Origin: Dehalococcoidia bacterium
GTDB taxonomy: Bacteria; Chloroflexota; Dehalococcoidia; Lucifugimonadales; UBA3495
Direction of reading: 5' to 3'
DNA length: 64,000 bases
NCBI GenBank assembly: GCA_965237775.1
Contig: OZ250155.1
Coordinates: forward strand, 17,084-81,083
Under the pieces are notes generated by a model. The model had not been told where the DNA came from and did not search any database. It saw only the letters and a list, made by a program, of their open reading frames with translations. The first letter of the stretch is position 1. Each line of letters starts with the position of its first letter. This document shows positions 7,013 to 35,285 of the stretch, piece after piece. The position numbers were made by a program, and so were the translations under genes.

Positions 7013-8644
7013 CTATTCCAGGCTCAGGAAGCGACGCTCGCCTTCGAAACTGTAAAACGGTTCGTGAATCAGGACGAAATTACCGTCACTTGCTTCGATC
7101 TGAAAACAGACATTGCCTTCGGTCTGTCCCCCGGGAAATAGCTCGGCGTCCAGTTCGCCCGGTATGACTCCGCAGGAATGATCGAATGGCGTGTAAACGA
7201 CCCGCTTGCCTCCAATCAGGCTGTAGTCGGATTCTGCCACGTTCAAGGAATCGGCACCGGAGGCGTAGGAAACTGCGACCGTCACCATGTAGAAGCGGTT
7301 TCCGGGTTCCGGCGGCTCGTTGAACTGATTGGCTTCCATCACCAAGTCGGCGGCGTCCTCCAAGATGCGGGTAACGACGATTTCCGTGCCGTCCGAACCC
7401 TGCAAAACATCGCCCGCCGCTACCGGATTGTCCAGCGTCATCCCTGGCGGCAAAGCTAGATTTTCCGGGGAAGGAGTTGTGAGTGGCACCGGAGAGAAAT
7501 TTGCCTCAGAGCCAATGCTCTGAGGGTTAATGCTCAGGAAGCGGCGCTCGCTTTCGAAACTGTAAAACGATTCGTGAATCAGGACGAAATTACCATCACT
7601 TGCTTCGATCTGGAAACAGACATTGCCTTCGGTCTTTCCCCCGGGAAATAGCTCGGCGTTCAGTTCGCCCGGTATGACTCCGCAGGAATGATCGAATGGC
7701 GTGTAAATGACTCTCTTGCTTCCGATCAGGCTGAAGTCGGATTCTGCCACGTTCAAGGAATCGGCACCGGACGCATAGGAAACTGCGACCGTCACCATGT
7801 AGAAGCGGTTTCCGGGTTCCGGCGGGTCGTTGAACTGATTGGCTTCCATCACCAAGTCGGCGGCGTCCTCCAAGATGCGGGTAACGACGATTTCCGTGCC
7901 GTCCGAACCCTGCAAGACATCGCCCGCTGCTACCGGATTGTCCAGTGTCATCCCTGGCGGAATAGAAGTTGGCGTTGGTGCTGGAGCCGGTGGGACGGTA
8001 GGCGGTGGAGTTTGCGTAGCAACCGTCGGGGTCATGGTTGCGGGTATTCCAATCGAAGCGGGAGTAGCAGTAGGCGCAAGCGTTGAAGTCCGCAAAGCGG
8101 TAGCCATTGCAGTTGCCACCGCCGGTATTGATGCCTCGGCTGTCTCTGTCGGTTTGGCGACCTGCCCTTCTGCAGAGATCTGCGGTGCCCCGCGGGACAA
8201 CGCTATGCTGCAGTCTTTAACAACGATGTCAAGAATACCGTCGTCTGTGACCTGCCCCAGCACGCTTACGGTTTGCCCCTGTTGCAGGGATAAAACAGCA
8301 GATTCGTCAGTCTTGTCTACCTTGCAGACAACGTCAACCGTGAAATTACCCGTTTCCAGTTTGACATCATACTTGTTCCCTGCCTCGGTGACTGATCTAA
8401 TAATACCTGCAATCAAGGCAATTCTGTCGTTGTATTTGTTAGTCCACGCGACCTCGTTTAGTTCTTTTTCATTTTGTAGCACCTCAGCTGACACGGAGAA
8501 GGGAGTCGGGCCTGGTATTGGAGTTGGAGAGGCGACCGGACCGCCGTTAGGGACGCCATTGGCAGGTGGAGGCTCGCTGCCGCAGGCAACGAAAGTCAAA
8601 GACACGAGGATAAGGAAGGCGAAGCCAGTACACATCCTGGACAT
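7013..8644 (-). CDS. Secreted lipoprotein: OB-fold (tRNA_anti-like) domain, Pro/Thr-rich linker, and two tandem DUF4352-like domains
   Basis: The signal peptide and lipobox read MSRMCTGFAFLILVSLTFVAC|GS, starting from the ATG at 8644, which is preceded by AAGGGGG. The OB-like segment reads KYNDRIALIAGIIRSV...VVCKVD...LQQGQTVSVLGQV. Two nearly identical copies of about 170 aa follow (PPGMTLDNPVAAGDVLQGSDGTEIVVTRILED...PGNRFYMVTVAVSY...GNVCFQIEASDGNFVLIHE). Confidence 0.8.
   Translation of the reverse strand: MSRMCTGFAFLILVSLTFVACGSEPPPANGVPNGGPVASPTPIPGPTPFSVSAEVLQNEKELNEVAWTNKYNDRIALIAGIIRSVTEAGNKYDVKLETGNFTVDVVCKVDKTDESAVLSLQQGQTVSVLGQVTDDGILDIVVKDCSIALSRGAPQISAEGQVAKPTETAEASIPAVATAMATALRTSTLAPTATPASIGIPATMTPTVATQTPPPTVPPAPAPTPTSIPPGMTLDNPVAAGDVLQGSDGTEIVVTRILEDAADLVMEANQFNDPPEPGNRFYMVTVAVSYASGADSLNVAESDFSLIGSKRVIYTPFDHSCGVIPGELNAELFPGGKTEGNVCFQIEASDGNFVLIHESFYSFESERRFLSINPQSIGSEANFSPVPLTTPSPENLALPPGMTLDNPVAAGDVLQGSDGTEIVVTRILEDAADLVMEANQFNEPPEPGNRFYMVTVAVSYASGADSLNVAESDYSLIGGKRVVYTPFDHSCGVIPGELDAELFPGGQTEGNVCFQIEASDGNFVLIHEPFYSFEGERRFLSLE
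7022..7959. repeat. Tandem duplication inside the lipoprotein gene: two units of about 430 bp with a 510-bp period
   Basis: Segment 7022-7449 closely matches 7532-7959, with only scattered substitutions by eye. The antisense ORFs 7178..7459 and 7688..8086 give near-identical translations. Confidence 0.85.
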
Positions 8645-9071
8645 AGGGAACCCCCTTGCCGGCGTTGGGACAGGGACCACCGCCACAGCGATCCTGCCCT
8701 TGCATGAACCTTCAAAGGGGCAAAGATGCCCCTGGCCAAGAGCTCGGCCTGGTCCATGCTCTGAGAAAGGGGTCCAAGATCGCTGTAGCGGGCGGAATTA
8801 TACTAGCAATGAGCCAAGGAGGCCCGCACTTAATGCATCAGCATAGACCCCAATCCACCGAATAACTGAGTGTGGCAGTGGGTTGGAGAGGCGAACTGGA
8901 CCAAGTTAATTTCTAGAGAATTCGTGCAGAGTCTAGTGATAGTCCCGTAGCTTCTGCATATGGGCCCAACATCGGTCCCCACGAACGCTTCCTAATCGTT
9001 GGACTCCCACCGGATCATTAATCTAGCTGGGTCAACCTCGGGCAAATGCAAGTCTACGCCGGCGTATCTGG

Positions 9072-9720
9072 CTACTCGGCGTCTCGGTGCTGAAGCCAGG
9101 GATAGCGTTGGTCGATGTATTGCCACCAAGTGGCAAGCTCCGGATGGGTGTCAATGGGGAAATTACCAAATAAGGCTTCAGTGGACGTACTGATAAATCG
9201 GTCAGGTAGTCTCACCAGACTTTTCCAGACCTCGATACTGGAGTCCCCCAGTTGCTGCAACCCTGGCGAAGTAACCCGATGGAAGTCGCGATTCTTGGCA
9301 GGGGCCACGTGTAACACTTTTACAAGATCAGTTTCAGATTCGCGCGCCGCCTCCATTTCTTGGGCGAGCAATTGTTGTCTCAGAAACTGGTAGAAGGGCT
9401 CATAGAACAAGTCACCGAAGTCTGTAATGTAGTTCTTGTCCAAAAGGCAGCCTGGGCTATGGTACAAGTCCCGGTAGATGTCCATCCTATTGGTTCCGCT
9501 CGGGGCAATTCCCTTCCAAGAGGGACTATATGACTCAGTGTATTTCCACTCAATCAATATTATCTGGCGGGTTCCGTCCACCAGACGGAACATAACAGCG
9601 GCGTCGGCACTCGTGAAATTGGCTCCCCTCGTGCGGCGTCCGCTCCGAGAAACCTTCTCTCCGAGATAGTTTTCGAGGCCAATCCATTCGAACGATACGA
9701 GTTGGCCTTCAACTTCCATC
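9072..9720 (-). pseudogene. 3' part of a PD-(D/E)xK nuclease-like gene split by IS66
   Basis: The part contains SADAAVMFRLVDGTRQIILIEWKYTE, which has a D...ExK motif. It joins in frame to 11153..11513 once the IS and one copy of the 8-bp duplication are removed (EPME|VEGQLVSFEW). Confidence 0.7.
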
Positions 9721-11152
9721 GTAACTGTTCAGAGTTGAGGGGATGGATTAGTTAAAACTTGCTTGGGAAGTTCGGTGCGTCGGGTCGTCGGTTATGTTAA
9801 ATCAGGAGGATGGAGAACAAGGTAGACCTGAGGACGGCCAGCCGGGAGGCGCTGTTGGCGGTGATTGCGCGGCAGCAGGCGGTCATCGACGAGTTGCAGC
9901 GGCGGATAGCGGCGTTGGAAGGGGGTCTCAAGGGCAAAGGGCGGCCCGGAATGCCGGGCAACAAACCGGGTGCAAAGTCAGAGCCGGCCGAGAAGAAGGA
10001 GCCAAGAAAGCCCCGGCCCCACGGCTTTAGCCGTCGGCGCACGGTGGCGGCTCACCAGGTGGAACATGTCTTGGACTCCTGTCCGGAGTGTGGCACCGGG
10101 TTGGTTGGGGGTTGGCCGCAGCGGACTCGGGAAGTCATCGATATCCCAGTGGCTCCGGTGGAGGTCACGGAGCACGTTTTCGTGACCCGGGTCTGCCCAG
10201 TATGTGAACGGCGCCGGACCCCCAAGACGGACTTGGGCGGTGGGGTAATCGGTCGGGGACGGTTGGGAGCCAACTTGGTCTCATTGATCGCTGGCCTGCG
10301 GGAAGAGGGCCGGTTGCCCCTTCGGACCATCCAATGGTATCTGGAGACCGTCCACCAGTTGCGCTTGAGCGTTGGGGGAATCACCCAGGTCCTCCACGGC
10401 GTGGCCCGGCAAGCCCAACCGGCGGTGGCCGAGGTGCTGGAACTAGTCCGGACCAGCCAGGTGGTGCACGCCGACGAGACCGGCTGGCGCCAGGAGGGGG
10501 CCAATGGCTATGTCTGGACCTTCTCCACTCCCACTGAGCGGTACTTCCTGCGCCGAGGCCGGAATAAGGAGGTGGTGGACGAGGCGCTGGGGGAGTCCTT
10601 CAGCGGGGTGTTGGTCAGCGATTTCTACGCTGCCTATAACCACTACCCTGGCCTGAAGCAGCGGTGTTGGGCTCATCTGCTCCGGGACATCCATGACCTG
10701 AAGGCCCTCTACCCAGCAGACGCCAAGCTGGCCGGATGGGCGGCGGCAGTGCATGACCTCTACGCCCAGGCCAAGCGGTTCTCCCATCCTCAGGCAAGGA
10801 AACGCCGTCAGGCCCAACTGGAGTTGGAGCGGAAATTGTTGGCCTGCTGCCGACCCTTCCTTGATGACCCAGGGGCAGTCCAGGCCAAGCTCTGCCGGCG
10901 CATCCAGCGCTTCATCAAGGAGTTGTTCGTATTCGTAGCCGAACCGGCCGTCCCCTCGGAGAACAACGCCGCCGAGAGGAGCCTTCGTCACCTGGTGACC
11001 AGCCGCAAGATCAGCGGCGGCACCCGCTCAACCCAGGGCACCAACACCAAGATGGCTCTCGCTTCCCTCTTCGGTACCTGGCGCGCCCGAGGATTGAATC
11101 CCCTCACCGCATGCCGCCAGTTGCTCACTTCCCCTCAACTCTGAACACTTAC
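9721..11152 (+). mobile_element. IS66-family insertion sequence (single-ORF, ISBst12-like), 1432 bp
   Basis: The 23-bp terminal inverted repeats are GTAACTGTTCAGAGTTGAGGGGA (9721-9743) and tcccctcaactctgaacacttac (11130-11152), matching at 22 of 23 positions. They are flanked by an 8-bp direct repeat CTTCCATC at 9713-9720 and 11153-11160. Confidence 0.9.
9810..11144 (+). CDS. IS66-family transposase
   Basis: The 444-aa ORF has an N-terminal coiled coil, a zinc finger (CPECGTGL...CPVCERR), a DDE core (VVHADETGWRQEG) and the C-terminal motif NNAAERSLRHLVTSRKISGGTRS. Confidence 0.9.
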   Translation: MENKVDLRTASREALLAVIARQQAVIDELQRRIAALEGGLKGKGRPGMPGNKPGAKSEPAEKKEPRKPRPHGFSRRRTVAAHQVEHVLDSCPECGTGLVGGWPQRTREVIDIPVAPVEVTEHVFVTRVCPVCERRRTPKTDLGGGVIGRGRLGANLVSLIAGLREEGRLPLRTIQWYLETVHQLRLSVGGITQVLHGVARQAQPAVAEVLELVRTSQVVHADETGWRQEGANGYVWTFSTPTERYFLRRGRNKEVVDEALGESFSGVLVSDFYAAYNHYPGLKQRCWAHLLRDIHDLKALYPADAKLAGWAAAVHDLYAQAKRFSHPQARKRRQAQLELERKLLACCRPFLDDPGAVQAKLCRRIQRFIKELFVFVAEPAVPSENNAAERSLRHLVTSRKISGGTRSTQGTNTKMALASLFGTWRARGLNPLTACRQLLTSPQL

Positions 11153-20833: not shown

Positions 20834-22689
20834 CCTAGAAATGCGGATGAAAAGCCTTGGTTGAGAAGAGGGCTTTAGGCAGAAAGGCCGGCGTCAGCAA
20901 CGCCAGCGGCCAAATCAGACCGAGCCGGATTGCACCAAATGTTGCTGTAGCACTGTCGGCGCCGGCCCAGGCGTCACGGTAGCCGATGGCAGCGCCACCA
21001 ATATCGCCTGTCAAACCGGTTTTGCCCGCCAGCAGGGTCAGGTTGGCCACCGTGGCTGCCAGGTACAGCTGGAACCGGGTTTTGGTCCGACCGAAGTAGC
21101 GGGCCTGGCGAATCCCCAGCTGCACCAGCCGGGCCAGCCGGTGCTCCACCACCACCCGGCGTTGACAATACCCGGCAAAGGCTTCGCTCTGCTGCAGGGC
21201 CCGGGCCTGCTGCAACAAAGCCTCCTGCGGGTGCAGTTGGACCGTTCGCCCCAATCCCGATGACCCGGCCACGCATTGAGAGCGCAGCGGGCAGGCTCCG
21301 CACACCGCCGCATCGAACCGGAAGGCTTGCAGCCGGTGAGTCCGTCCCGTGGAACCGGTCCGCTTCCCCGCCGGCAGCAGCTTCCGGGTGACCTGACCCG
21401 CCGGACAGGTGCAGGTTCCCGCCGCCAGGTCAATCCGGAAGTCATCCTTCGGGAAGTGTTTCCGGTTCGGACGGCCCGGCACCCGGGCAATCAGGGTCCG
21501 TCCCGCGTCGGCGAAGGCCTGCCTGGTATCGCCGTCGCCATAAGCGGCATCGCCCAGCGCCTCCTCCACCGGCACACCGGTATTGGCCTCGCTCCGTTCC
21601 ACCAGTTCCAAGGCCCCCAGGTTGTCCGGAGCGTTGCCGGGCAATACTTCCACAGCAGTAATGAGCTGGGTATCGGTGTCCACCACAATCGCCGCCTTGT
21701 GCCCGTCGAAGCGACGGCTGCTGCTCTTGTGGCCGTGGCGCATCTCCGGGTCATGCACCGACACCATCCGGTCCTTGCTCACCCCGTCCTTGAGACCAAT
21801 ACCGTCGCCGGTGCGCTCCACATCCTGGAGCAGCAACTGCCCCAGCAACTCCGCCGCCGCGACGATGCCCTGCCGCTCAGGGCTGCCCTCCGGCAGAGCC
21901 TCCTGCGCCTGCCGCCCTGCTTCCAACAGACGGTCGGCGTCAGCCACAATCGTGGCCAGCAACCCCGCCCGTGCCCCCTTGTCGGACCAGTCGATGGCCG
22001 ACTCTCCCTTGATGCTGGATGCAAGGTACCGCCCGTACCCCTGGGCCTCGGCCCATCCTTTGACATTGGACCTCTCCACGGCTGCCAGCGCCCGCAGCAG
22101 CTTCACAATCCCGTCCGCCAGCAGGTTGAAGGTGTCCCTCACGGCGCCCCGCCCCAGGATGTTCGTGGTGTCCAGCGCCACCCGCATGCCGCGCTTTTTT
22201 AGGTAGCCCGACTCCCGGGCCAGCCGCAGGCTGGACTCGAACACCGCCCGCACCTTGTCGTGGAGAATCAACTGGGCGCGGAACACCTGGAGCGTGCTCT
22301 TGGCGAAGGGCCTGTCCTCCACCTCAATTCCCAACGCCACTTTCCAGCGGATGTCGAAGTCGGCTCTGGCCTTGGCCTCGGCGTCGCTCACCTTGTCGTG
22401 GGTCTGCAGCAGCAGCGCCGTGGCCAGCAGGCTGGGCGGCACGCTGTCCCGGCCGTTGTCGGCGCAGTAGAACTCGGCGAAGTCGGAGTCCCGGAATAGT
22501 TGGCCTCTCAACGATGCCAACAGGCCGTAGAAAGTGTCCTTACCCACGTGGTCCAGATACAGCCGGTCCGCCTCCCAGAAGCCCCTCTGATCCGATCGCT
22601 CTCCCAGCATTCCCTTGCTCCGCTATCTTTGATACCCCGGAGTATAACCCCTGGCATCAAAATGGACAGTTTCCGGCCAGACTTCTAGG
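20834..22689 (-). mobile_element. IS1182/IS5-superfamily insertion sequence, copy A, 1856 bp
   Basis: The ends are CCTAGAAGTCTGG... and ...CCGCATTTCTAGG (an inverted repeat matching at 10 of 13 positions). The element appears identical to the copies at 23433-25288 and 60085-61940. Confidence 0.9.
20835..22610 (-). CDS. IS1182/IS5-like DDE transposase (591 aa)
   Basis: The N-terminal InsH/DUF772-like region reads GRDSVPPSLLATALLLQTHDKVSDAEAKARADFDIRWKVALG. The DDE region contains FDGHKAAIVVD and LGDAAYGDGD. The C-terminus reads RRVVVEHRLARLVQLGIRQARYFGRTKTRFQLYLAATVANL. Confidence 0.9.
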   Translation of the reverse strand: MLGERSDQRGFWEADRLYLDHVGKDTFYGLLASLRGQLFRDSDFAEFYCADNGRDSVPPSLLATALLLQTHDKVSDAEAKARADFDIRWKVALGIEVEDRPFAKSTLQVFRAQLILHDKVRAVFESSLRLARESGYLKKRGMRVALDTTNILGRGAVRDTFNLLADGIVKLLRALAAVERSNVKGWAEAQGYGRYLASSIKGESAIDWSDKGARAGLLATIVADADRLLEAGRQAQEALPEGSPERQGIVAAAELLGQLLLQDVERTGDGIGLKDGVSKDRMVSVHDPEMRHGHKSSSRRFDGHKAAIVVDTDTQLITAVEVLPGNAPDNLGALELVERSEANTGVPVEEALGDAAYGDGDTRQAFADAGRTLIARVPGRPNRKHFPKDDFRIDLAAGTCTCPAGQVTRKLLPAGKRTGSTGRTHRLQAFRFDAAVCGACPLRSQCVAGSSGLGRTVQLHPQEALLQQARALQQSEAFAGYCQRRVVVEHRLARLVQLGIRQARYFGRTKTRFQLYLAATVANLTLLAGKTGLTGDIGGAAIGYRDAWAGADSATATFGAIRLGLIWPLALLTPAFLPKALFSTKAFHPHF

Positions 22690-23432: not shown

Positions 23433-25288
23433 CCTAGAAGTCTGGCCGGAAACTGTCCATTTTGATGCCAGGGGTTATACTCCGGGGTATCAAAGATAGC
23501 GGAGCAAGGGAATGCTGGGAGAGCGATCGGATCAGAGGGGCTTCTGGGAGGCGGACCGGCTGTATCTGGACCACGTGGGTAAGGACACTTTCTACGGCCT
23601 GTTGGCATCGTTGAGAGGCCAACTATTCCGGGACTCCGACTTCGCCGAGTTCTACTGCGCCGACAACGGCCGGGACAGCGTGCCGCCCAGCCTGCTGGCC
23701 ACGGCGCTGCTGCTGCAGACCCACGACAAGGTGAGCGACGCCGAGGCCAAGGCCAGAGCCGACTTCGACATCCGCTGGAAAGTGGCGTTGGGAATTGAGG
23801 TGGAGGACAGGCCCTTCGCCAAGAGCACGCTCCAGGTGTTCCGCGCCCAGTTGATTCTCCACGACAAGGTGCGGGCGGTGTTCGAGTCCAGCCTGCGGCT
23901 GGCCCGGGAGTCGGGCTACCTAAAAAAGCGCGGCATGCGGGTGGCGCTGGACACCACGAACATCCTGGGGCGGGGCGCCGTGAGGGACACCTTCAACCTG
24001 CTGGCGGACGGGATTGTGAAGCTGCTGCGGGCGCTGGCAGCCGTGGAGAGGTCCAATGTCAAAGGATGGGCCGAGGCCCAGGGGTACGGGCGGTACCTTG
24101 CATCCAGCATCAAGGGAGAGTCGGCCATCGACTGGTCCGACAAGGGGGCACGGGCGGGGTTGCTGGCCACGATTGTGGCTGACGCCGACCGTCTGTTGGA
24201 AGCAGGGCGGCAGGCGCAGGAGGCTCTGCCGGAGGGCAGCCCTGAGCGGCAGGGCATCGTCGCGGCGGCGGAGTTGCTGGGGCAGTTGCTGCTCCAGGAT
24301 GTGGAGCGCACCGGCGACGGTATTGGTCTCAAGGACGGGGTGAGCAAGGACCGGATGGTGTCGGTGCATGACCCGGAGATGCGCCACGGCCACAAGAGCA
24401 GCAGCCGTCGCTTCGACGGGCACAAGGCGGCGATTGTGGTGGACACCGATACCCAGCTCATTACTGCTGTGGAAGTATTGCCCGGCAACGCTCCGGACAA
24501 CCTGGGGGCCTTGGAACTGGTGGAACGGAGCGAGGCCAATACCGGTGTGCCGGTGGAGGAGGCGCTGGGCGATGCCGCTTATGGCGACGGCGATACCAGG
24601 CAGGCCTTCGCCGACGCGGGACGGACCCTGATTGCCCGGGTGCCGGGCCGTCCGAACCGGAAACACTTCCCGAAGGATGACTTCCGGATTGACCTGGCGG
24701 CGGGAACCTGCACCTGTCCGGCGGGTCAGGTCACCCGGAAGCTGCTGCCGGCGGGGAAGCGGACCGGTTCCACGGGACGGACTCACCGGCTGCAAGCCTT
24801 CCGGTTCGATGCGGCGGTGTGCGGAGCCTGCCCGCTGCGCTCTCAATGCGTGGCCGGGTCATCGGGATTGGGGCGAACGGTCCAACTGCACCCGCAGGAG
24901 GCTTTGTTGCAGCAGGCCCGGGCCCTGCAGCAGAGCGAAGCCTTTGCCGGGTATTGTCAACGCCGGGTGGTGGTGGAGCACCGGCTGGCCCGGCTGGTGC
25001 AGCTGGGGATTCGCCAGGCCCGCTACTTCGGTCGGACCAAAACCCGGTTCCAGCTGTACCTGGCAGCCACGGTGGCCAACCTGACCCTGCTGGCGGGCAA
25101 AACCGGTTTGACAGGCGATATTGGTGGCGCTGCCATCGGCTACCGTGACGCCTGGGCCGGCGCCGACAGTGCTACAGCAACATTTGGTGCAATCCGGCTC
25201 GGTCTGATTTGGCCGCTGGCGTTGCTGACGCCGGCCTTTCTGCCTAAAGCCCTCTTCTCAACCAAGGCTTTTCATCCGCATTTCTAGG
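23433..25288 (+). mobile_element. IS1182/IS5-superfamily insertion sequence, copy B, 1856 bp
   Basis: It has the same ends and the same internal ORF set as copy A, in the opposite orientation. Confidence 0.9.
23512..25287 (+). CDS. IS1182/IS5-like DDE transposase (591 aa)
   Basis: Its translation is identical to those of 20835..22610 and 60164..61939. Confidence 0.9.
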   Translation: MLGERSDQRGFWEADRLYLDHVGKDTFYGLLASLRGQLFRDSDFAEFYCADNGRDSVPPSLLATALLLQTHDKVSDAEAKARADFDIRWKVALGIEVEDRPFAKSTLQVFRAQLILHDKVRAVFESSLRLARESGYLKKRGMRVALDTTNILGRGAVRDTFNLLADGIVKLLRALAAVERSNVKGWAEAQGYGRYLASSIKGESAIDWSDKGARAGLLATIVADADRLLEAGRQAQEALPEGSPERQGIVAAAELLGQLLLQDVERTGDGIGLKDGVSKDRMVSVHDPEMRHGHKSSSRRFDGHKAAIVVDTDTQLITAVEVLPGNAPDNLGALELVERSEANTGVPVEEALGDAAYGDGDTRQAFADAGRTLIARVPGRPNRKHFPKDDFRIDLAAGTCTCPAGQVTRKLLPAGKRTGSTGRTHRLQAFRFDAAVCGACPLRSQCVAGSSGLGRTVQLHPQEALLQQARALQQSEAFAGYCQRRVVVEHRLARLVQLGIRQARYFGRTKTRFQLYLAATVANLTLLAGKTGLTGDIGGAAIGYRDAWAGADSATATFGAIRLGLIWPLALLTPAFLPKALFSTKAFHPHF

Positions 25289-25317
25289 GAACCAATATTA
25301 TTACCTGGAGGTGGACC

Positions 25318-26097
25318 ATGGCACTCATAGACCTCAATCGCCCGCCGGGCGAATATCTCCCGGAGCAGCGTGACCACGGTTGTGTCAGCGGAGACGTGGA
25401 GGCGGTGTTCCGCAACCATCAGGAACGGGTGATACACCTCTTCAAGGAGGCCCGCGAGCGCAACCTGGCGTGCGTGGGCGCGGTCGCCTGGCTCACCGCC
25501 CCCCGGGTCCTCGCCGCGATGGCCACTATCCCCACGTCGCTAATAGTCCAGAAGGAAGACTTCCTGCGCTCGGACATCTCCGCCGGCGGAAACCTCGACG
25601 CGTGGAAGGCACGCCTGCGGCGGCAGTACGAGGCCATCGCCGACTCGGACCGCCGGCGAGACCCGGGCATTGCGTTCCAGCGCCAGAACATGCCCGATCC
25701 CCTTGGAAGCATGTCATACGGCGGCGACCCGCAGATTTCCGGCGTCTATGCTTTCGGCATCAGGAATGACCGGAGCAAGGAGGGAGGGCGGAGACAGCCC
25801 CTGATGCACAACAAGTTCTTGGCGTTCATCAGGGGTGTCGTGCAGGCTGGTACTGCCTGTGAGGGAGAGGGGGACGGGGCCTCAACCCTCGACTTCCACT
25901 GGCTTGTCGAGGCCGTTTGGACGGGCTCCTGCAACCTGAGCCTGTTGGCCCCGCGGTCCCGGGAGAATACGGTCATCATCAGGGACCCTGCCATCGGCAA
26001 CGCCTACCTGCACGAGTGGGCGGACATGATGGCCCTATCGGAGCCCCCGGACTGGAACTCGGCTTGGATCGACCCCCAATGGCGCACCGGCACCTGA
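25318..26097 (+). CDS. Phospholipase D-family (single HKD motif, Nuc-like) protein
   Basis: The HKD signature is LMHNKFLAF, followed by VWTGSCNLSLLAPRSRENTVII (an HxK...GSxN arrangement). GGAGGTGG lies upstream of the ATG. Confidence 0.7.
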   Translation: MALIDLNRPPGEYLPEQRDHGCVSGDVEAVFRNHQERVIHLFKEARERNLACVGAVAWLTAPRVLAAMATIPTSLIVQKEDFLRSDISAGGNLDAWKARLRRQYEAIADSDRRRDPGIAFQRQNMPDPLGSMSYGGDPQISGVYAFGIRNDRSKEGGRRQPLMHNKFLAFIRGVVQAGTACEGEGDGASTLDFHWLVEAVWTGSCNLSLLAPRSRENTVIIRDPAIGNAYLHEWADMMALSEPPDWNSAWIDPQWRTGT

Positions 26098-26194
26098 CGC
26101 TGCCGCCGCCAGCGGCTGTGAAAACCCGGATTATTGACATAATTATCGGGGAGGTGAGGCATGGCGAAACCGCAGGGACGGCTCCTATTTCTGG

Positions 26195-26713
26195 GTGACC
26201 TGGCTCACCAAACTCCTGAGCGGAGAGAACTCGTGCGAATGGGCGACCTGGTTCAGGGCCCGCCACGAGAGCGGCAGCTGGGAGCAGGTCCCCGGGGATT
26301 TCGACCGGGCCGGGAGGCAGAACCACTTTGCCCTGAGGGGCGGCGCGGGCACGCTGGGAGGCCAGCCGGACCTGGTCGCCAGGATGGGCGAGACGGGCGC
26401 CATCATCGACGCCAAGACCGGGAAACCGAGCCCGTCCCACCTGGCCCAGGTCATTCTCTACATGTACGCCGTGCCCAGGGCAATCGGGCGGCGCCAGGGC
26501 GTGGTCTTCGACGGCCAGGTGGCCTGTGCGGACTACGTCGTCGACATACCGGCCTCCGACGTCGATGACCGGTTCGTGGAACGGCTCTCACAGTTGATCG
26601 GCCGGTTGGCGTCGGACGCCCCGGTGAGGAAGATTCCCAGAACCGGCGCTCGCCGGTTCTGCCCCATCACGGCGGGGGGAACCGTTCGCTATTGGGGTAT
26701 GAGGGTATTGTAG
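26195..26713 (+). CDS. PD-(D/E)xK nuclease, Cas4/RecB-like
   Basis: The core reads QPDLVARMGETGAIIDAKTGKPSPSHLAQVILYMYA (D...D-x-K...Q..Y), with an N-terminal Cys (ENSCEW) and a C-terminal RRFCPI. The start is uncertain: the track uses a GTG and the frame is open from 26138. Confidence 0.6.
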   Translation: MTWLTKLLSGENSCEWATWFRARHESGSWEQVPGDFDRAGRQNHFALRGGAGTLGGQPDLVARMGETGAIIDAKTGKPSPSHLAQVILYMYAVPRAIGRRQGVVFDGQVACADYVVDIPASDVDDRFVERLSQLIGRLASDAPVRKIPRTGARRFCPITAGGTVRYWGMRVL

Positions 26714-27494
26714 CCAGCCCTATATGCCCCACGAGCAAACGATACAGGCCAGGCCGCCGCCGAATGGGCCCGCCACCGGGACATCGTCTCCCTCGGGACC
26801 CTGACCGTCGCAACCGCCGTGACCGGCACAGCCGTCGTGATCGCAACCGGCTCGGCGATGTCCCGGGACATCGCCGCCGGCAACCCGGCAACCCGGCAAC
26901 CCCGGTTATCATCTGGGGCTACTTGGGCATCATCATCCTGGGACTCTACCTGGCCATCACACTGGCGACCGACGCCGCTGAGCCGGAGACCAGGGAGACC
27001 CCGCACAGGCATGGCGCCGCGGTATCCCCGCCGTAAGCCATCATGGCCAACTCGGCCGCCGGAAACGGCGACTGGCGCCTGGCGATCATCTGGTCCGTGG
27101 CCGCAGCGGTCTTCGTCTCAGCACCGACGGTTTTCCTGTTCAGGTTCGAGAGACGGAGATGAGCCCGTGAGTCCGGAAGCAAGGCCAGGCGAGAGGCCGG
27201 AGACCAAGAGAAGGCGCGACCGCCTTGCTGGTATCCCGAAGGCCACGACGATGGAAGCCGCCACCGACCCGGGCTGGCTGACTACGATTACGATCAATAG
27301 TCGGGACGACTTCCCTGGGGATTCCGGGGTGAACCCCAGGCGGGCAACTCCTGAGCGCCCTGCTTCCGGGCGGGCAGTATCACCCGGTACATCAAGGCCG
27401 AAGGTTTCAGGGGATAGATGACCGCCTTCGCCGACAACCAGAGAGGACCCACGGAAGAAATCCCGGATGTGCCGGCCTTCATCAACAGGTCGAC

Positions 27495-27672
27495 TCACCC
27501 GTAATTGACACTGAAGGACGGAGACATCCTGAAAGCGCCATCCCGGGCAACCCATTGCGCCCGCAGATTACCCCCCGCCAAAGCCCGCTCCAGCATCTCC
27601 AAGGCCAATCGGCCCTGTGTCAGTCGGCCGGCTAACGGCTCAGTGGCCGCCGCCAAGCCGGAAACGAAGTGT
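27495..27672 (-). pseudogene. Relic fragment of an IS701-family transposase
   Basis: The reverse-strand translation GRLALEMLERALAGGNLRAQWVARDGAFRMSPSFSVNYG* parallels TELALVMLERARELGHLRAKWVAGDDAFGMSPSFREGL in the intact copy at 1542..2819. Confidence 0.45.
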
Positions 27673-27813: not shown

Positions 27814-30303
27814 CTAGGGTGCAGAGCTGTGGGGTGGATCACCCGACTCAAGTGTCCGGGCCCTCCGGGCCCTCCGGGCTGTCCGAACCGCACGGTCCAC
27901 CATCTTGGCCCACTGGTCGAACTTCTTGCAGGCGTCCCGCCTGATATTCGGGTATTCTTTCAAGATGTCCCTAAACGCTTGACGAGGATCTGTCTTGGTC
28001 TGGGACGTTGTTAACCACCGCAGGAGATTTGCTGGACGGACCTCGTTTTGGTACTGTTCCTCCAGCCTGAGACAATACTGAGCCATCTTCTCTAAGGGGC
28101 CCGCGGGAACCGCGTGTTGCCGCGCCGCGCCATAGTCGATAATGGCCCTGACACGGTGCAGGCACAGGCGCTCCGCATTAGTGAGACCGGTCTGCGTCAA
28201 GCGCCTTACAACGGTCCGGTCGGCCTCGGCTACCAGATCGTTTATCTTTCTCAACGCTTCCCATCGTCGCCGAGCTCGGTCCTGGGCGGTGGCATGTGTC
28301 CTAACTGGCTCCGGTGACGGAGCCGGCGGCGCCGGCGCCGGCGCCTCTTGCAGCACACGGTCCTGGGCAGCAGCCGCTTTTCTAACCGGCGCTGGGGACG
28401 GAGTTGGTGGCATCGGGGTGGAAACCGGCTTGTTCGTGGAAGCTCCTGCCTTGCCCTCATTCGGCACGCGGTCCATCTCTGCCTGGTCGATGGGCGGTGG
28501 TTCCCAATCTAGTTCCTCCGTCACGGGGTCCGACCAGATGCGTTGCTCTTCGAGCAATCTTACCCAAACCTCGAGCGAAGGTTTACTGTAGTCCAGCCGC
28601 CGTCCCGTCCGCTGCTGGAGGTGACCCCGGTACTCCCTGGCAATATCACTCAACCCCACCGGGCGGCCCTTGCATCGCCATACACTCTCCGGCCCCTCCC
28701 ATACGCCTTTGGAGAATTCCTTCAAGGTGGCGGTGAGAATCATCAAATCCCCCGCCAGGTCATCAAAGCGCTTCGCAGGCAACTCCTCACCGGTAATGAC
28801 CAGGATGGGGAAAGACTTTCCCAGCCGGATCGGGGCCAGGCGGTATGAGCGGAGCTTTTCTTCCTCTATCCGTTTCTTCGCCTTCGCCGAAAACTCCACC
28901 TCCAGGGGAACCCACATGCCTTCCTCCCGGCCGGGTACCGGCACCCGAACCCAGAGGTCGGGGACCAACTGGCCATCGTGCCAGGACACCACCCATCTCC
29001 ACCCGGCGGCCACCGGCATCCCAGCCCCCAGGAACGCTGCCGCCACCTCCGCCACCGCCGAGTCATGGCGCCTTTCCCTTATCGCATCCGCTCCCTCCGG
29101 GTCCAGATGCGTGACCTCCACCAGCCGGTCGGCATCCACCCTGTCCCGAGCAGCCAACATTTCGCGACCCCTCTGGGTAACATAGATGTTTTTTTCGATG
29201 CTTGTGATCAGCCCACGGTCTGCCAAGGGATCGACTGCAGCATTGACCGCGCCGCCGGACATATGAAAGGCTCTCACCAGGTTCGCCCTGGTGGCTGCCC
29301 GAAACTCCGACACAAAGGCCAGGAGCCGATATACCCGTGTACCCCCCAGATTCACCAGGTCGGGACCCTCTCCGATGGCCGCAGCCTCGGGGTGGCCGAT
29401 CGACCTGGCCTGCGGAGGCTTCTCCCTCAGAGTCCACTCGCTGTGACTGGCCTCTGCAGACCAGACCAGGGCGCCGGCTGTGTCCACGGACCCCACCTCC
29501 ACGTCGTCACCATAGGCGGTCTTTGATCGAAACGCCGCAAATTCGTCCAGTCCAATGGCGGCAACGGGCGGATCTATATCCCACCAGATACGGTCTTCCG
29601 GACCGCGGGGAGAGCGAATGAACTTGGAGCCAAGCCGGAGACTGCGGGACTGGTAGTCCTCCTGGGGCAGCAGTCCGGCCCAGAAGAAGGGGATGGAGTA
29701 GAACCCGGGGCGCTTGGTATACAGGTCAAAACGCCAGGTGGCTACGGCGTGCAGGCGGCCACTGGGCAACCACCGGACCTCGGTCAGGGTGGGCACGCCC
29801 AGCCAGACAAGACTGCTGCAGGCCGGATCCGGATAGCTGGACTGCCACTGGAATGGTCTGGCAAGCCCACAGGTCCAGAACGTGGGGAGGATCTCATAGA
29901 GGGATTCGATCATGGGCAGCCATAGCAGCATCCTTGTGACACCTTCTTCCGTCATCTGCCAGGTAAGGGGCAGCGCTGCCCGAAGCAGGCCCCTGTACTG
30001 GAAGGGCTTGATCACGTGATTCACACCCTCTCGCGCCAGCACATACCGCCGTTGAATCCGGCGGGTCACGCCCAGTCCGCGGCCGGCGATGAGTTTCTTC
30101 TTCTCCAACTCGTGACACGCCTTGTGAATTTCGGAATCTGACATATCGAGCCTTTTGGCGAGATCCGAGGCGGAGGCCCAGGGCTGATGCGCCAGCGCCA
30201 ACAGAATCCGCTCCTCCGGGGGGAACTCTGCCAGTAATGTTGCATCCTCTGCCCGCCCCCCTGCAGGGTGAAGACGCGGCGGGAATGCTGCTCGGTGCTG
30301 CAT
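27814..30303 (-). CDS. Replication-relaxation (Replic_Relax)-like protein with two wHTH regions and a long C-terminal extension (829 aa)
   Basis: The first wHTH reads ASASDLAKRLDMSDSEIHKACHELEKKKLIAGRG. The second reads ATRANLVRAFHMSGGAVNAAVDPLADRGLITS. The core reads RHDSAVAEVAAAF...LVPDLWVRVPV...WVPLEVEFSAKAKKRIEEEKLRSYRL. It is paralogous to 3776..5516. Confidence 0.65.
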   Translation of the reverse strand: MQHRAAFPPRLHPAGGRAEDATLLAEFPPEERILLALAHQPWASASDLAKRLDMSDSEIHKACHELEKKKLIAGRGLGVTRRIQRRYVLAREGVNHVIKPFQYRGLLRAALPLTWQMTEEGVTRMLLWLPMIESLYEILPTFWTCGLARPFQWQSSYPDPACSSLVWLGVPTLTEVRWLPSGRLHAVATWRFDLYTKRPGFYSIPFFWAGLLPQEDYQSRSLRLGSKFIRSPRGPEDRIWWDIDPPVAAIGLDEFAAFRSKTAYGDDVEVGSVDTAGALVWSAEASHSEWTLREKPPQARSIGHPEAAAIGEGPDLVNLGGTRVYRLLAFVSEFRAATRANLVRAFHMSGGAVNAAVDPLADRGLITSIEKNIYVTQRGREMLAARDRVDADRLVEVTHLDPEGADAIRERRHDSAVAEVAAAFLGAGMPVAAGWRWVVSWHDGQLVPDLWVRVPVPGREEGMWVPLEVEFSAKAKKRIEEEKLRSYRLAPIRLGKSFPILVITGEELPAKRFDDLAGDLMILTATLKEFSKGVWEGPESVWRCKGRPVGLSDIAREYRGHLQQRTGRRLDYSKPSLEVWVRLLEEQRIWSDPVTEELDWEPPPIDQAEMDRVPNEGKAGASTNKPVSTPMPPTPSPAPVRKAAAAQDRVLQEAPAPAPPAPSPEPVRTHATAQDRARRRWEALRKINDLVAEADRTVVRRLTQTGLTNAERLCLHRVRAIIDYGAARQHAVPAGPLEKMAQYCLRLEEQYQNEVRPANLLRWLTTSQTKTDPRQAFRDILKEYPNIRRDACKKFDQWAKMVDRAVRTARRARRARTLESGDPPHSSAP

Positions 30304-30864: not shown

Positions 30865-31083
30865 TCATCGCCATTCTGTCTCTGATGCCCGCGGCCTGGA
30901 CTCTACCCACGCGATGACTTCCCGGGCTCTCCAGGCGACGGCCCTGCGCCCAATGCGCAGGGGAGCCGGGAAGTCCCCGCGGGCGACCATGGCAAGAAGT
31001 GTGGAACGAGAGAAGCCGGTGGTCCTGAGGACCTCGGGGAGCCTCATCAGACGGAGGCTTTCGATACTGGTGGCAAGGCTCAT
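30865..31083 (-). CDS. AlpA-family phage regulatory/excisionase-like HTH protein
   Basis: The 72-aa ORF contains LMRLPEVLRTTGFSRSTLLAMVARGDFPAPLRIGRRAVAWRAREVIAWVESR. Confidence 0.8.
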   Translation of the reverse strand: MSLATSIESLRLMRLPEVLRTTGFSRSTLLAMVARGDFPAPLRIGRRAVAWRAREVIAWVESRPRASETEWR

Positions 31084-31668: not shown

Positions 31669-31878
31669 TTAACCTTGGCCGAAATCTGATCTGGAGATTC
31701 CCAGGTTTCTCCTGATCCGGTGGAGGGTTCCTGTGGCCAGGTCACGGTTGCCATGCCTGGGGATAGGCGTCTGCCGCCCGTTTGCGGGGTTCTCCCATAT
31801 TTCGTGGGACCCGTCGGCCTGGCGCTGGAATTTACAACCCAGGCTCTCCAACTTTCTGCGTAGTTCCCTGTAGGTCAT
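31669..31878 (-). CDS. hicA: HicA-family mRNA interferase toxin
   Basis: The 69-aa ORF reads MTYRELRRKLESLGCKFQRQADGSHEIWENPANGRQTPIPRHGNRDLATGTLHRIRRNLGI. It overlaps the upstream hicB by 4 nt (ATGA). Confidence 0.85.
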   Translation of the reverse strand: MTYRELRRKLESLGCKFQRQADGSHEIWENPANGRQTPIPRHGNRDLATGTLHRIRRNLGISRSDFGQG

Positions 31879-32120
31879 GCGGTTACTGTCAGGGTGCCTT
31901 CGAAGCTGCGCAGGGGAGTCATCTCCGGGGGCAGTGCTTGCCCATTTTCCTTGCGCAGTTGGATGATGGTCTGTGCTACTGCCAGAAGGCTTTTAAGTGT
32001 TTCTTCCGGGGTCTCCCCCCAGGCCATGCAACCCTGTAGCGCCGGAATTTCGGCCAGGTACATCCAGCCCTCGCTTTCCTCGGGTTCGTGGAGCACGTAG
32101 TCCAGCTGGTATAGGTCCAT
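31875..32120 (-). CDS. hicB: HicB-family antitoxin (short form without a DNA-binding domain)
   Basis: The 81-aa ORF contains GWMYLAEIPALQGCMAWGETPEETLKSLLAVAQTIIQLRKENGQALP, which is UPF0150/HicB-like. Confidence 0.75.
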   Translation of the reverse strand: MDLYQLDYVLHEPEESEGWMYLAEIPALQGCMAWGETPEETLKSLLAVAQTIIQLRKENGQALPPEMTPLRSFEGTLTVTA

Positions 32121-32414: not shown

Positions 32415-33654
32415 ATGATGGGTGGATTGAAGAATGGGTCGATCTTAGATTGTTTCGCGGGGTTGGAAGACCCACGAATTGAGCGTAGCAAGCGGCATAA
32501 GCTGCTGGACACCATAGCGATTGCCATCTGCGGAGCGAACTCCTGGGTCCACGTGGAGCTATTCGGCTGGAGCAAGGAGGAGTGGTTAAAGAGCTTCTTG
32601 GAACTGCCCAACGGAATCCCATCCCATGACACTTTCGGGGAGGTCTTCTCGCGGATAAACCCGGACCTGTTCCAAAGCTTTTTAATGGCATGGACCCAAG
32701 AGATAGCCCAACTGGCCCTGGGAGAAGTGGTGGCCATCGACGGGAAGACGGTGCGCCGCTCCCACGATGGATTCCGGCGCAAGGGGGCAATCCACCTGCT
32801 AAGCGCCTGGGCGTCGGCCAACAGCATGACTTTGGGACAGGTGAAGGTGGATGAGGAGTCCAACGAAATCACCTCCATTCCCAGGTTGCTGGAACTATTG
32901 ACCCTACATGGCTGTATCGTGACCATCGACGCCATGGGCTGTCAAAAGGAGATTGCCCAACAGATCGTCGACGCCGGGGCGGACTACGTGCTGGCGGTGA
33001 AGCAGAACCAGGGCCAGTTGTTTGAAGACGTACGTGACCTCTTCCAGGGTGCGGAAGAGTTTGGCTTTGAAGGAGTACCCCATGATTTCGCCCGGACTGT
33101 AGAGAAGGGCCACAGGCGCATCGAATCTCGAGAATGTTGGGTGGTCGCCGACCCGGGCTGTCTAGTATTACAACGACGGTTCAAGGCGGGATGTCGCGGG
33201 ATGCACGAAGGGCGGCGCGCCGCCCGCCGTGAAGACAGGATGGAGCCGCCACCCTAAAGCCGTCGTTGAAGTACTAGAGTACCTGGAGAACGGGAAGCAA
33301 TGGGCCGGGCTTGAGGCGGTGGTGAAAGTAACGGCCCGGCGGGAGACGGACCGGGGCGTGAGCATCCAGTCCCGTTACTACATCAGCAGCCTGAGGGCTC
33401 CCGCTGCCCGGATGCTGCAGGCCATTCGCCGCCACTGGGGCGTCGAGAATTCTCTGCATTGGACCTTGGACGTAACCTACCGAGAGGACCAATGCCGGGT
33501 GCGCAGAGACCATGCTCCCCAGAACATGGCGGCCCTGCGCAACATCTCCCATAACCTGCTCAAGCCCGAGTCCAGCCTCAAAACCGGTATCCAAGGCAAA
33601 CGGCTCCAAGCCGGCTGGCGTGAGCACTACCTGATCAAAGTCCTCTCCTCCTAA
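32415..33654 (+). pseudogene. ISAs1-family transposase interrupted by a 108-bp MITE
   Basis: The N-terminal part reads FAGLEDPRIERSKRHKLLDTIAIAICGANSWVHVELFG...IDAMGCQKEIAQQIV. The C-terminal part reads RYYISSLRAPAARMLQAIRRHWGVENSLHWTLDVTYREDQCR. Removing 33166-33277 restores ...ADPGCLEYLENGKQWAG in frame. Confidence 0.85.
33166..33273. mobile_element. 108-bp MITE related to the IS701-family element at 1493-2944
   Basis: Its ends, tattacaacgacgg and ccgtcgttgaagta, form an inverted repeat matching at 12 of 14 positions. A CTAG direct repeat flanks it at 33162-33165 and 33274-33277. The last 59 bp or so match the right end of the IS at 2886-2944 at about 55 of 59 positions. Confidence 0.85.
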
Positions 33655-34070: not shown

Positions 34071-35285
34071 GTGAACATGGGGGAAATGGCAGTGGCCGCA
34101 GGGTTGACCGACAGGCGAGCAAGGACGATTAAGAAACCTGGGGAGTACTCCGACGGCAGCGGCTTGTATCTCCGGATCGACACCAAAGGGGGTAAGCGGT
34201 GGGTCCAGCGGATTAAAGTCAAGAACGGGCCCTTGCGTCACCTCGGCTTGGGGGCGTTTCCGGTGATCACGCTCGCGGAGGCCCGAGAGACTGCCTTGGC
34301 CAACCGGAAGATGGCCCGCCTCGGCATCGACCCGTTGGAGACTCAGAAGCAGGCTCGCGAGGAACAGGAGCGGGCCGAGTCCGTTGTCAACTTTTCCGAG
34401 GCCGCCGAACGGGTGATAGCGTTGCGGCGGCCAAGCTGGAAGAACACCAAACATGCCGCGCAATGGGCATCTACTCTTCGGACCTATGCGTTTCCGGCAA
34501 TCGGGGATCTGCCGGTCGGAGAGGTTACGAACGCGGATGTCCTGAAGCTCTTGGAGCCGATCTGGACTGCCAAGCCCGAGACGGCCCGGCGCGTGCGCCA
34601 GCGCACAAAGACAGTCTTGGACTGGGCGATTGCCCAGGGTTATCGCAACGACAACCCGGCAGGAGAGTCACTGAACGCAGTGCTCCCCAGGTTGCCGCGT
34701 ACGAAATCACATCACCCGGCCCTCCACTACTCCCAGGTGGCGGGCGCCATAAGCCGGGTCTACGAATCTGATGCCGAGCTTGTCACCAAGTTGTCGTTCG
34801 AGTTCTTGGTGCTGACGGTCACGCGGTCCAACAATGTCCGGGGAGCTGAATGGAGGGAAGTGGATATGGACTCCCGGACCTGGACCATACCTGCGGCGCG
34901 GATGAAGGGGACGGAGATGACGGCCGGGGAACACCGGGTCCCGCTGTCCGATAGGGCTATGGGAGTGCTGGCAGAAGCGCAGGCCCTCTGGTCCGATTCG
35001 GAGTGGATTTTCCCGGGTCCCCGTTCTGGACGCCCATTGTCGGACTCGACCCATAGCACCTTGCTACGAGACTTGGGCGTACCGGCGGTTCCCCACGGGT
35101 TTCGCTCTAGCTTTAAGGACTGGTGCATCGAACAGACGGATACACCCTGGGCGGTGGGTGAAGCGGCGCTTGCCCACACTCTTGGCAACTCCACCGAAGT
35201 GGCCTACGCAAGGAGCGACCTGTTCGACCGGCGGCGCCAACTGATGGACGAGTGGGCGGCCTACTTGGTGGCCCGCCGCGCCTAG
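34071..35285 (+). CDS. int: Tyrosine integrase with an N-terminal Arm-type (DUF4102-like) DNA-binding domain
   Basis: The N-terminus reads LTDRRARTIKKPGEYSDGSGLYLRIDTKGGKRWVQRI. The catalytic region contains TRSNNVRGAEWREV, HGFRSSFKDW and LAHTLGNSTEVAYARSD (R...HxxR...Y). The true start may be the ATG at 34077 or 34086. A direct repeat of TGTACAC at 34052-34058 and 34064-34070 abuts the start. Confidence 0.9.
   Translation: MNMGEMAVAAGLTDRRARTIKKPGEYSDGSGLYLRIDTKGGKRWVQRIKVKNGPLRHLGLGAFPVITLAEARETALANRKMARLGIDPLETQKQAREEQERAESVVNFSEAAERVIALRRPSWKNTKHAAQWASTLRTYAFPAIGDLPVGEVTNADVLKLLEPIWTAKPETARRVRQRTKTVLDWAIAQGYRNDNPAGESLNAVLPRLPRTKSHHPALHYSQVAGAISRVYESDAELVTKLSFEFLVLTVTRSNNVRGAEWREVDMDSRTWTIPAARMKGTEMTAGEHRVPLSDRAMGVLAEAQALWSDSEWIFPGPRSGRPLSDSTHSTLLRDLGVPAVPHGFRSSFKDWCIEQTDTPWAVGEAALAHTLGNSTEVAYARSDLFDRRRQLMDEWAAYLVARRA

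Follow-up and report, generated by a model that had tools for sequence, protein, structure and literature searches.

An intact phospholipase D-family gene and a decayed Cas4-like gene at a mobile-element locus of Dehalococcoidia

The two genes and their present state

A 64,000-nucleotide (nt) stretch of DNA from a Dehalococcoidia bacterium, referred to here as the window, contains two adjacent open reading frames (ORFs) on the forward strand: ORF1 (259 amino acids (aa), ATG start), which encodes a member of the phospholipase D (PLD) superfamily, and ORF2 (172 aa, GTG start), which resembles the Cas4/RecB-like nucleases. The coordinates of both, their common orientation, and the 97-nt gap between them, all given in an earlier reading of the DNA alone (the original prediction), were borne out by the ORF list (Table 1). 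The window was compared with retrieved loci and contigs (L001-L154) and retrieved proteins (P-numbers). As judged from its sequence, the module in the window has ceased to be a pair, with the Cas4-like gene reduced to a pseudogene and the PLD gene cut from the promoter and leader that precede its relatives, which leaves its ribosome-binding site (RBS) unmasked.

ORF1 is predicted to encode an intact, full-length, Nuc-like protein of the PLD superfamily with a single HKD motif. The segment HNKF...GSCN, originally read as a PLD/Nuc-type half-site, was confirmed as such by residue conservation in 25 homologs, where Gly203, Asn206, Ser214, and Glu216 are invariant and His164, Lys166, and Ser204 each occur in 90% or more of the sequences. 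The aspartate of the HxK(x)4D motif is absent from ORF1, its place being taken by Ile171 in a column that is hydrophobic or variable across the alignment, and the Pfam PLDc_2 match is sub-threshold (12.8 bits against a cut-off of 27). A first search with ORF1 returned 45 proteins of 248-264 aa, 12 of which carry a precomputed PF13091 match; the nearest relatives (e.g., P0001, 259 aa) are 97% identical. At a threshold of E<=1e-30, a profile search of 1.84 billion representatives reached 631 clusters (50% identity); with few exceptions, these are stand-alone proteins 225-280 aa in length. No matches to ORF1 were found in PADLOC, NCBIfam, or PHROGs, nor by tblastn against 50,697 GenBank phages, and a search of plasmids gave six weak matches in uninformative contexts. 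Relative to its close copies, ORF1 has a dN/dS of 0.15-0.24, indicative of purifying selection.

The AlphaFold2 model of ORF1 (pLDDT 81, pTM 0.83) gave 1byr, 6ehi, 4gel, and 4ggj as its top Foldseek matches in the PDB, each with a probability of 1.0; by name, the best folds are Nuc, NucT, Zucchini, and FAM83. For Nuc (1byr), the E value was 3.5e-6 and the target-normalized TM score 0.69, and a phage "NucT-like nuclease" was among the fold matches in BFVD. The family profile led to the same structures when run against PDB sequences (Nuc, E=2e-5; Zucchini, E=2e-3), and the HMMER alignment placed the GSxN...E stretch of the ORF1 family on residues 95-143 of Nuc. ORF1 thus shares the PLD fold and the single HxK...GSxN...E half-site with Nuc of pKM101/Salmonella, its top match by fold and by profile, and with NucT of H. 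pylori; Nuc and ORF1 both occur on mobile elements. Unlike Nuc, ORF1 is longer by approximately 100 residues, with an N-terminal extension and inserts at residues ~80-140 and 178-190, and it lacks, in addition to the motif aspartate and an above-threshold PLDc_2 match, the signal peptide of this periplasmic enzyme. Because no hydrophobic signal sequence can be read at its N terminus, the PLD protein is probably cytoplasmic. No DNA-recognition or modification-sensor domain was found beside the PLD core of the 259-aa protein by Pfam or fold search.

ORF2 is a pseudogene of a 218-aa Cas4/RecB-like PD-(D/E)xK nuclease with an Fe-S cluster. The proposed core, PDLV...IIDAKTGK...Q..LY, was upheld by a PF12705 score of 25.8 bits (cut-off 22). 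Both domain assignments of the original prediction therefore stand; its view that the second gene was uncertain merely at its C terminus does not, as several lesions have degraded the whole gene. Intact relatives are almost all 215-219 aa long and carry Cys26, Asp97, Asp110-x-Lys112, Gln123-x3-Tyr127, and Cys191-x2-Cys194-x5-Cys200, with Asp97, Asp110, Lys112, Gln123, and Tyr127 invariant in the alignment. ORF2 retains the motifs D (PDLV), DxK (IIDAKTGK), and QxxxY (QVILY). A 2-nt deletion near 26171 lies just past the true ATG at 26161, and the annotated ORF2 can therefore begin only at the GTG at 26195. Between GGCAGA repeats (junction 26316-26321), an in-frame deletion of 78 nt removes 26 aa (WQMAHTAMV.EARERWE...TE) in the window, L085, and L086; these residues probably include the motif I helix. 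Further downstream, the first cysteine of the CxxC motif (Cys191) is changed to arginine at 26650-26652, a lesion unique to the window. Homology to the intact genes stops at about 26676, within the run of Gs, and this 3' truncation takes the last cluster cysteine (Cys200) together with the C-terminal tail. The four-cysteine cluster is consequently incomplete, only the equivalents of Cys26 and Cys194 being left.

Three of these lesions, namely the 2-nt and 78-nt deletions and the 3' junction, are common to the window, L085, and L086, which come from separate samples and assemblies, and sequencing error was rejected as their source on the agreement of these three independent assemblies. The G6 run noted earlier near the 3' end of the gene is present, at 26674-26679, and sits at the truncation junction; the sister copy L086 has G5 instead, which puts the short ORF2 tail into another frame there, a difference for which sequencing error is a possible source. 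The same may hold for the frameshifts in L005 and L010, as both look like long-read assemblies. At 26647-26652 the window has GCTCGC (Ala-Arg), compared with GAGTGC (Glu-Cys) in the near-identical L085 (11330-11335), and by this comparison the pseudogene appears to be still gathering damage.

With respect to family, ORF2 gave weak matches in PADLOC-DB 2.0 (Cas4, E=4e-5; DruK, E=1e-4) and a TIGR00372 cas4 equivalog score of 14.3 bits, far below the cut-off of 65. An association with CRISPR was rejected on this score and on the lack of array-like repeats in window positions 15-40 kb; no cas genes were seen among the called neighbors of the pair loci. The gene resembles the solo Cas4-like nucleases of mobile genetic elements (MGE-Cas4; PF12705, PF01930; PMC5704561), with which it shares the D, DxK, and QxxxY motifs and the four-cysteine cluster of its intact relatives, and which are recruited by phages and integrative elements with no CRISPR link. 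It differs from them as a subfamily with a T-x-D-F tail and a TIGR00372 score of 14 versus 65 bits, the window copy being a pseudogene. This tail was seen as a conserved (G)-x-T-x-D-F-COOH ending after the cysteine cluster (P0047, P0048, P0052, P0090, P0122, and others); it is possibly an interaction peptide, and it is gone in the window copy. The Cas4-like family profile found nothing among PDB sequences at E<=0.01, and the AlphaFold2 model of an intact protein (pLDDT 46) was unusable for a fold search. Across the two genes, dN/dS is 0.15-0.46, again indicating purifying selection. Neither gene belongs to a housekeeping family, a relationship that would have spoken against the prediction, and PADLOC gave no system matching both proteins; the original prediction had likewise not recognized the pairing as a named system.

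The pair in related elements

Within the Dehalococcoidia clade of the PLD family, a Cas4-like gene lies directly downstream of the PLD gene in 13 of 16 loci, in the same order and orientation and, where measured, at a distance of 97-185 nt. The pair loci are L001, L002/L003, L004-L007, L009-L011, L014, L085, and L086, with a second, decayed copy in L007; L008, L012, and L013 have no Cas4-like gene. The window spacer lacks a hairpin segment of ~38 nt that is found in L004/L006. Beyond this clade the pair was absent from 70 loci of other phyla, from 44 IMG/VR loci of the PLD family, and from all 15 Cas4-like loci retrieved independently (seven from IMG/VR and eight further). Co-conservation of the two genes, on which the original prediction had been made to depend, was thus found within one clade of Dehalococcoidia mobile elements and not elsewhere. 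Outside Dehalococcoidia, BLAST clustering of neighbors and a Pfam scan of 131 neighbors revealed no conserved partner of the PLD family, with no Pfam family present in more than two of the 131.

In intact copies, the pair resides inside an element of at least ~10 kb that extends from a ParB-methyltransferase gene to the genes of a winged helix-turn-helix (wHTH) protein and an integrase. L001, L005, L009, and L011 share a synteny in which one to three small ORFs separate a ParB-methyltransferase fusion from the PLD and Cas4-like genes. Downstream of the pair come approximately eight further small ORFs, which apart from one RNase H-like match have no assigned family, and then 247-aa and 553-aa wHTH proteins on the opposite strand. 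The downstream block of small ORFs and the 553-aa wHTH protein are common to subsets of the loci, most fully L001, L005, and L009, and genes for an XRE regulator and a tyrosine integrase were found at the element end in L001 only. A Pfam and PHROG scan of the ten downstream genes of the element gave only the RNase H-like match, DUF1828, and weak wHTH matches. The ParB-like N-terminal domain fused to a DNA methyltransferase is encoded 1-2 kb upstream of the pair in eight loci; in L012, one of the loci without a Cas4-like gene, it adjoins the PLD gene in opposite orientation. It is absent from the window, whose lineage has lost the methyltransferase side to insertion sequence (IS) activity. One metagenome-assembled genome (MAG) holds at least three copies of the element (L005, L006, and L007).

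The PLD gene occupies a variable slot in this arrangement, which is sharply mosaic. Between L006 and L009 (9700-12000), identity is 85-93% over the 200 nt that precede the PLD ATG and 87-96% for the Cas4-like genes, compared with 44-70% for the PLD ORF and 35-38% for the spacer. Across the loci, identities span 49-99% for the PLD proteins and 73-94% for the Cas4-like proteins, and the two identity matrices are incongruent. Because the PLD gene diverges between conserved flanks and the matrices disagree, it can be described as an exchangeable, hypervariable cassette in a conserved slot.

These observations bear on whether the two genes are linked in function at all. They could be independent passengers, adjacent through inheritance from one ancestral element and kept together by linkage. 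In many contexts of phages and mobile elements, either family is found without the other, the two genes have separate RBSs, the spacer is poorly conserved, and recombination breakpoints between the genes accompany the incongruent trees; moreover, the PLD gene and its leader occur without a Cas4-like gene in L008 and L012, one partner is often pseudogenized, and the Cas4-like gene has other upstream partners elsewhere, e.g., an RNase_T gene in L143. Against this stand the constancy of order and orientation in 13 loci, although the PLD partner has diverged to 50% identity, and the refilling of the PLD slot by another PLD allele rather than by an unrelated gene. We consider a purely passive association distinctly unlikely.

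Outside the clade, relatives of the two genes occur separately and mainly near genes for replication or recombination in phages and integrative elements. In 39 IMG/VR loci, the commonest PHROGs beside the PLD gene are DNA primase, primase/helicase, DnaB, other helicases, endonuclease, and methyltransferase. Among the settings of the Cas4-like gene are the viral contig L090, where a DnaB-like helicase and a RusA-like resolvase flank it; the circular 48-kb contig L143, where its two neighbors are an RNase_T exonuclease and an RNaseH-SF1 helicase; and L141, where it belongs to an integrase-AlpA-primase island. In L143-L146 (7351-8657), an RNase_T/DEDD exonuclease gene was observed in the position of the PLD gene, with a 51-nt gap before the Cas4-like gene, which suggests that "nuclease X plus Cas4-like" is a recurring arrangement. 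Mobile elements are known to recruit genes of the Cas4 family repeatedly, with unknown function (Hudaiberdiev et al. 2017, PMC5704561).

Leader RNA and the surrounding island

A structured RNA module of ~125-140 nt was found just upstream of the PLD gene (L006:9760-9897), behind a sigma70-like promoter. The order is a TTGACA-N17/18-TA(T/A)GAT promoter, two hairpins with invariant stems and variable loops, a conserved linker, and an intrinsic terminator (GACCCGCUCCC-GACA-GGGGCGGGUC-U4), followed by two more hairpins. A predicted helix pairs UGGUCCCUUCAGGU with the RBS/start region ACCUGGAGGUGGACCAUG and would mask the RBS of the PLD gene (L006:9950-10003 and equivalents); this helix is almost invariant and offers little covariation by which to judge the pairing. 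A covariance model placed the leader before the PLD gene in 14 loci (L001, L002, L004-L006, L007 twice, L008-L012, L085, and L086), including the two, L008 and L012, that have no Cas4-like gene, and detected none in the window or in other phyla. Among 17 sequences, 99% of the modeled pairs are kept, three of them with compensatory changes, and conservation is higher in the leader than in the PLD ORF. A scan of Rfam gave a best E value of 1.4, with all matches far below the family gathering thresholds. With a promoter of its own, a terminator within the structured leader, and the RBS-masking helix, the PLD gene is probably near-silent in intact elements.

A metagenome scan revealed the same module, of ~120 nt, 19-24 nt upstream of large serine recombinase genes (Table 1), the products of which have Resolvase, Recombinase, and Zn_ribbon_recom domains, on contigs with neither a PLD nor a Cas4-like gene. 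The leader is therefore not specific to PLD genes. This bears directly on a reading in which the RNA and the PLD protein form a type III-like abortive toxin-antitoxin system, the RNA neutralizing a toxic nuclease and the Cas4-like gene being incidental. A promoter, a structured RNA, an intrinsic terminator, and a nuclease gene in this order make up the architecture of ToxIN-type (type III) loci, and the superior conservation of the leader over the PLD protein would fit. Unlike ToxIN, the leader has no tandem repeats, and its position before serine recombinases (L149, L154) points to a general cis-regulatory leader. In addition, its status differs among the window, L085, and L086, and the PLD ORF of the window is intact without it, which would hardly be tolerated of a toxin unless it were unexpressed. 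Such a system is thus very unlikely, and type III repeats as such were rejected: a terminator is present, but tandem repeats are lacking, and the window has no leader. The leader could be a new riboswitch-like or protein-responsive class of regulatory RNA. It is a tentative suggestion, and one we hold to be on the doubtful side, that the leader, rather than the gene pair, is the unit of importance, being an undescribed structured RNA of ~125 nt that gates the DNA-cutting or DNA-rearranging enzymes of Dehalococcoidia elements, with the PLD protein as a conflict effector silent until triggered; direct control of the enzymes by the RNA is less likely.

In the window, alignments show that IS copy B has replaced all but the last 29 nt of the leader, so that the promoter, structured RNA, terminator, and anti-RBS strand are gone. 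The position of this IS immediately upstream of the pair had been predicted correctly, whereas the removal of the native leader by its insertion had gone unnoticed; its end lies 29 nt before the ATG of ORF1. The proposed IS701 relic just downstream was not recovered: no transposase relic was detectable in the 26.7-27.8 kb region (Pfam, E<=0.01), and the nearest on that side is an ISAs1-like relic at 32415-33519. In L004 (8022-9990), a group II intron with an RVT_1 and GIIM ORF (8429-9811) was observed between the leader terminator and the PLD gene, and ISs occur in the equivalent region of L001, L085, and the window; the region between leader and PLD gene therefore appears to be an insertion hot spot.

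Copy A, the inverted twin of copy B, indicates with it a recent transposition or an invertible or composite structure around the intervening 743 nt, and an IS110 and a DDE_Tnp_1_4 relic lie farther left of the pair. On the right, a lineage-specific segment of ~930 nt stands in place of the Cas4-like 3' end and of ~5.6 kb of genes that the element has in L014. The 829-aa wHTH protein encoded beyond it, for which a look-up found no record, is distantly related to the 553-aa wHTH protein of intact elements (27-28% identity). With IS copies, relics, wHTH, AlpA, and integrase genes around the pair (Table 1), the locus is taken to be part of an IS-riddled genomic island, and copies of it that are 96-100% identical are present in Dehalococcoidia MAGs. 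Two small overlapping ORFs (69 and 81 aa) at 31669-32120 on the reverse strand, between the AlpA gene and the ISAs1-like relic, resemble a HicA/HicB toxin-antitoxin by eye. At the left edge of the window (17-1066, reverse strand), a stretch matches the large serine recombinase of L154 by tblastn (27.5% identity over 378 aa), and no leader RNA was detected beside it.

Table 1. Positions of the genes and features discussed; coordinates are those of the window unless a comparison locus is named.
Feature	Position	Strand	Remarks
IS copy A	20834-22689	-	1856-nt inverted twin of copy B, 100% identical; 743 nt between the copies
IS copy B	23433-25288	+	591-aa transposase with DUF772, DDE_Tnp_1, DDE_Tnp_1_6; abuts PLD gene
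Native leader remnant (last 29 nt)	25289-25317	+	RBS CCTGGAGGTGGACC; 3' strand of masking helix kept
PLD gene (ORF1)	25318-26097	+	
ORF1 predicted catalytic residues	His164, Lys166, Gly203-Ser204-x-Asn206, Glu216	+	25-sequence alignment
ORF1-ORF2 intergenic spacer	26098-26160	+	Cas4-like gene's own RBS GGGGAGGTGA
Cas4-like pseudogene	26161-26713	+	Original ATG 26161; GTG-started ORF from 26195
ORF2 as annotated	26195-26713	+	
Lineage-specific segment (~930 nt)	26679-27609		No family matches
829-aa protein	27814-30303	-	N-terminal MarR-type wHTH; linked to pair in L085, L086, L014
AlpA-type excisionase/regulator of island	30865-31083	-	Family scan
P4-type tyrosine integrase	34071-35285	+	Arm-DNA-bind_3, Phage_int_M, Phage_integrase domains
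ParB-methyltransferase gene	L009:7328-8701		
ParB-methyltransferase gene	L005:7515-8867		
ParB-methyltransferase gene	L085:6823-8109		
ParB-methyltransferase gene	L001:6788-7975		MT-A70 type
RNA module at recombinase	L149:2281-2419	-	
RNA module at recombinase	L154:662-800	+	
RNA module at recombinase	L153:377-517	-	Truncated

Possible roles of the pair

We interpret the pair, with moderate confidence, as the remains of a nuclease cassette of integrating Dehalococcoidia mobile elements with a role in the processing of element DNA. By analogy with Nuc, NucT, Zucchini, and BfiI, the PLD protein would be a homodimer in which two HxK/GSxN halves form one metal-independent site for cutting nucleic acid, presumably DNA. 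An intact Cas4-like enzyme would, by family, be an exonuclease with a four-cysteine Fe-S cluster that resects DNA ends. The PLD gene would probably be kept nearly silent by its promoter, leader terminator, and RBS-masking helix until a signal arrives. The most likely role would lie with replication or recombination intermediates of the element, or in the degradation of host or competitor DNA. In its components, the finding combines known kinds, a Nuc-like PLD nuclease and an MGE-Cas4, with a degraded copy in the window. A functional parallel is found in phage recombination and replication modules, in which the Cas4-like relatives lie by DnaB/RusA or by a DEDD exonuclease and SF1 helicase, and the PLD relatives by primases and helicases; unlike these, the Dehalococcoidia pair has no recognizable helicase, primase, or annealing protein beside it.

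Several points weigh against this interpretation. The elements carry no polymerase, capsid, or terminase genes recognizable by Pfam or PHROG, and the case for a replication module is consequently argued from other elements. One half of the pair is often broken (in L005, L010, L014, and the window lineage), and the pair therefore cannot be essential to the element. The PLD allele is much more divergent than its flanks, a pattern commoner in conflict genes than in replication genes. Finally, RNA, lipid, and phosphotyrosyl adducts are also possible candidates among the substrates of the PLD fold, and the canonical HxK(x)4D aspartate is absent.

The divergence of the PLD allele raises the possibility of a defense role for the pair. 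As an element-borne defense or exclusion module, the PLD protein would cut incoming or competitor DNA, the Cas4-like enzyme would degrade the fragments, and the methyltransferase might mark self in the manner of restriction-modification. Two nucleases, the first under predicted tight transcriptional and translational control, with hypervariable, cassette-like PLD alleles of 50-98% identity inside flanks of 85-95% identity, would suit such a module, as would the methyltransferase gene that lies upstream in eight loci and adjoins the PLD gene in L012. BfiI, SauUSI, the END nucleases, Mokosh MkoB/C, and DISARM DrmC belong to the same catalytic superfamily and there cut DNA. Single-gene PLD defense nucleases exist, for example the END nucleases, BfiI, SauUSI, and Mokosh (PMC12191111, PMC11672841), and the END nucleases are single genes missed by PADLOC and DefenseFinder (PMC12191111). 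Some neighbors of the PLD family in other taxa are OLD-like, AbiEii-like, Fic, and reverse-transcriptase genes. However, the defense enzymes of the superfamily join the PLD core to a sensor, helicase, or DNA-binding domain, and none is detectable with ORF1. With regard to BfiI-type restriction-modification, the methyltransferase gene is seen 1-2 kb upstream in the eight related loci and is missing from the window, and Pfam and fold searches detected no recognition domain in ORF1. The ParB-methyltransferase fusions that mobile elements carry are usually orphan enzymes with an anti-restriction role, which also counts against defense. PADLOC gave zero matches for the PLD protein and weak, generic ones for ORF2, the pairing is confined to one clade, no family recurs among the 131 PLD-family neighbors beyond the two occurrences noted above, the viral neighbors are replication genes, and dN/dS is below 0.5. 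We therefore regard a defense module as unlikely. As to the two functions originally proposed as alternatives, DNA processing fits better; the defense half fares worse, with no PLD model in PADLOC and replicative viral neighbors.

If the preferred interpretation, a cassette for processing element DNA, is true, the window holds a nuclease cassette in decay that derives from integrative elements of uncultured Dehalococcoidia, a family about which little is known. Its "two-nuclease module" is not functional as a pair and should not be scored as a defense system. Intact relatives offer two handles, the hypervariable nuclease slot between conserved flanks and a conserved leader RNA absent from Rfam. 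Thousands of "hypothetical" genes would gain an annotation if this large, uncharacterized PLD subfamily were assigned a role in the DNA metabolism of phages or mobile elements or in conflicts among elements.

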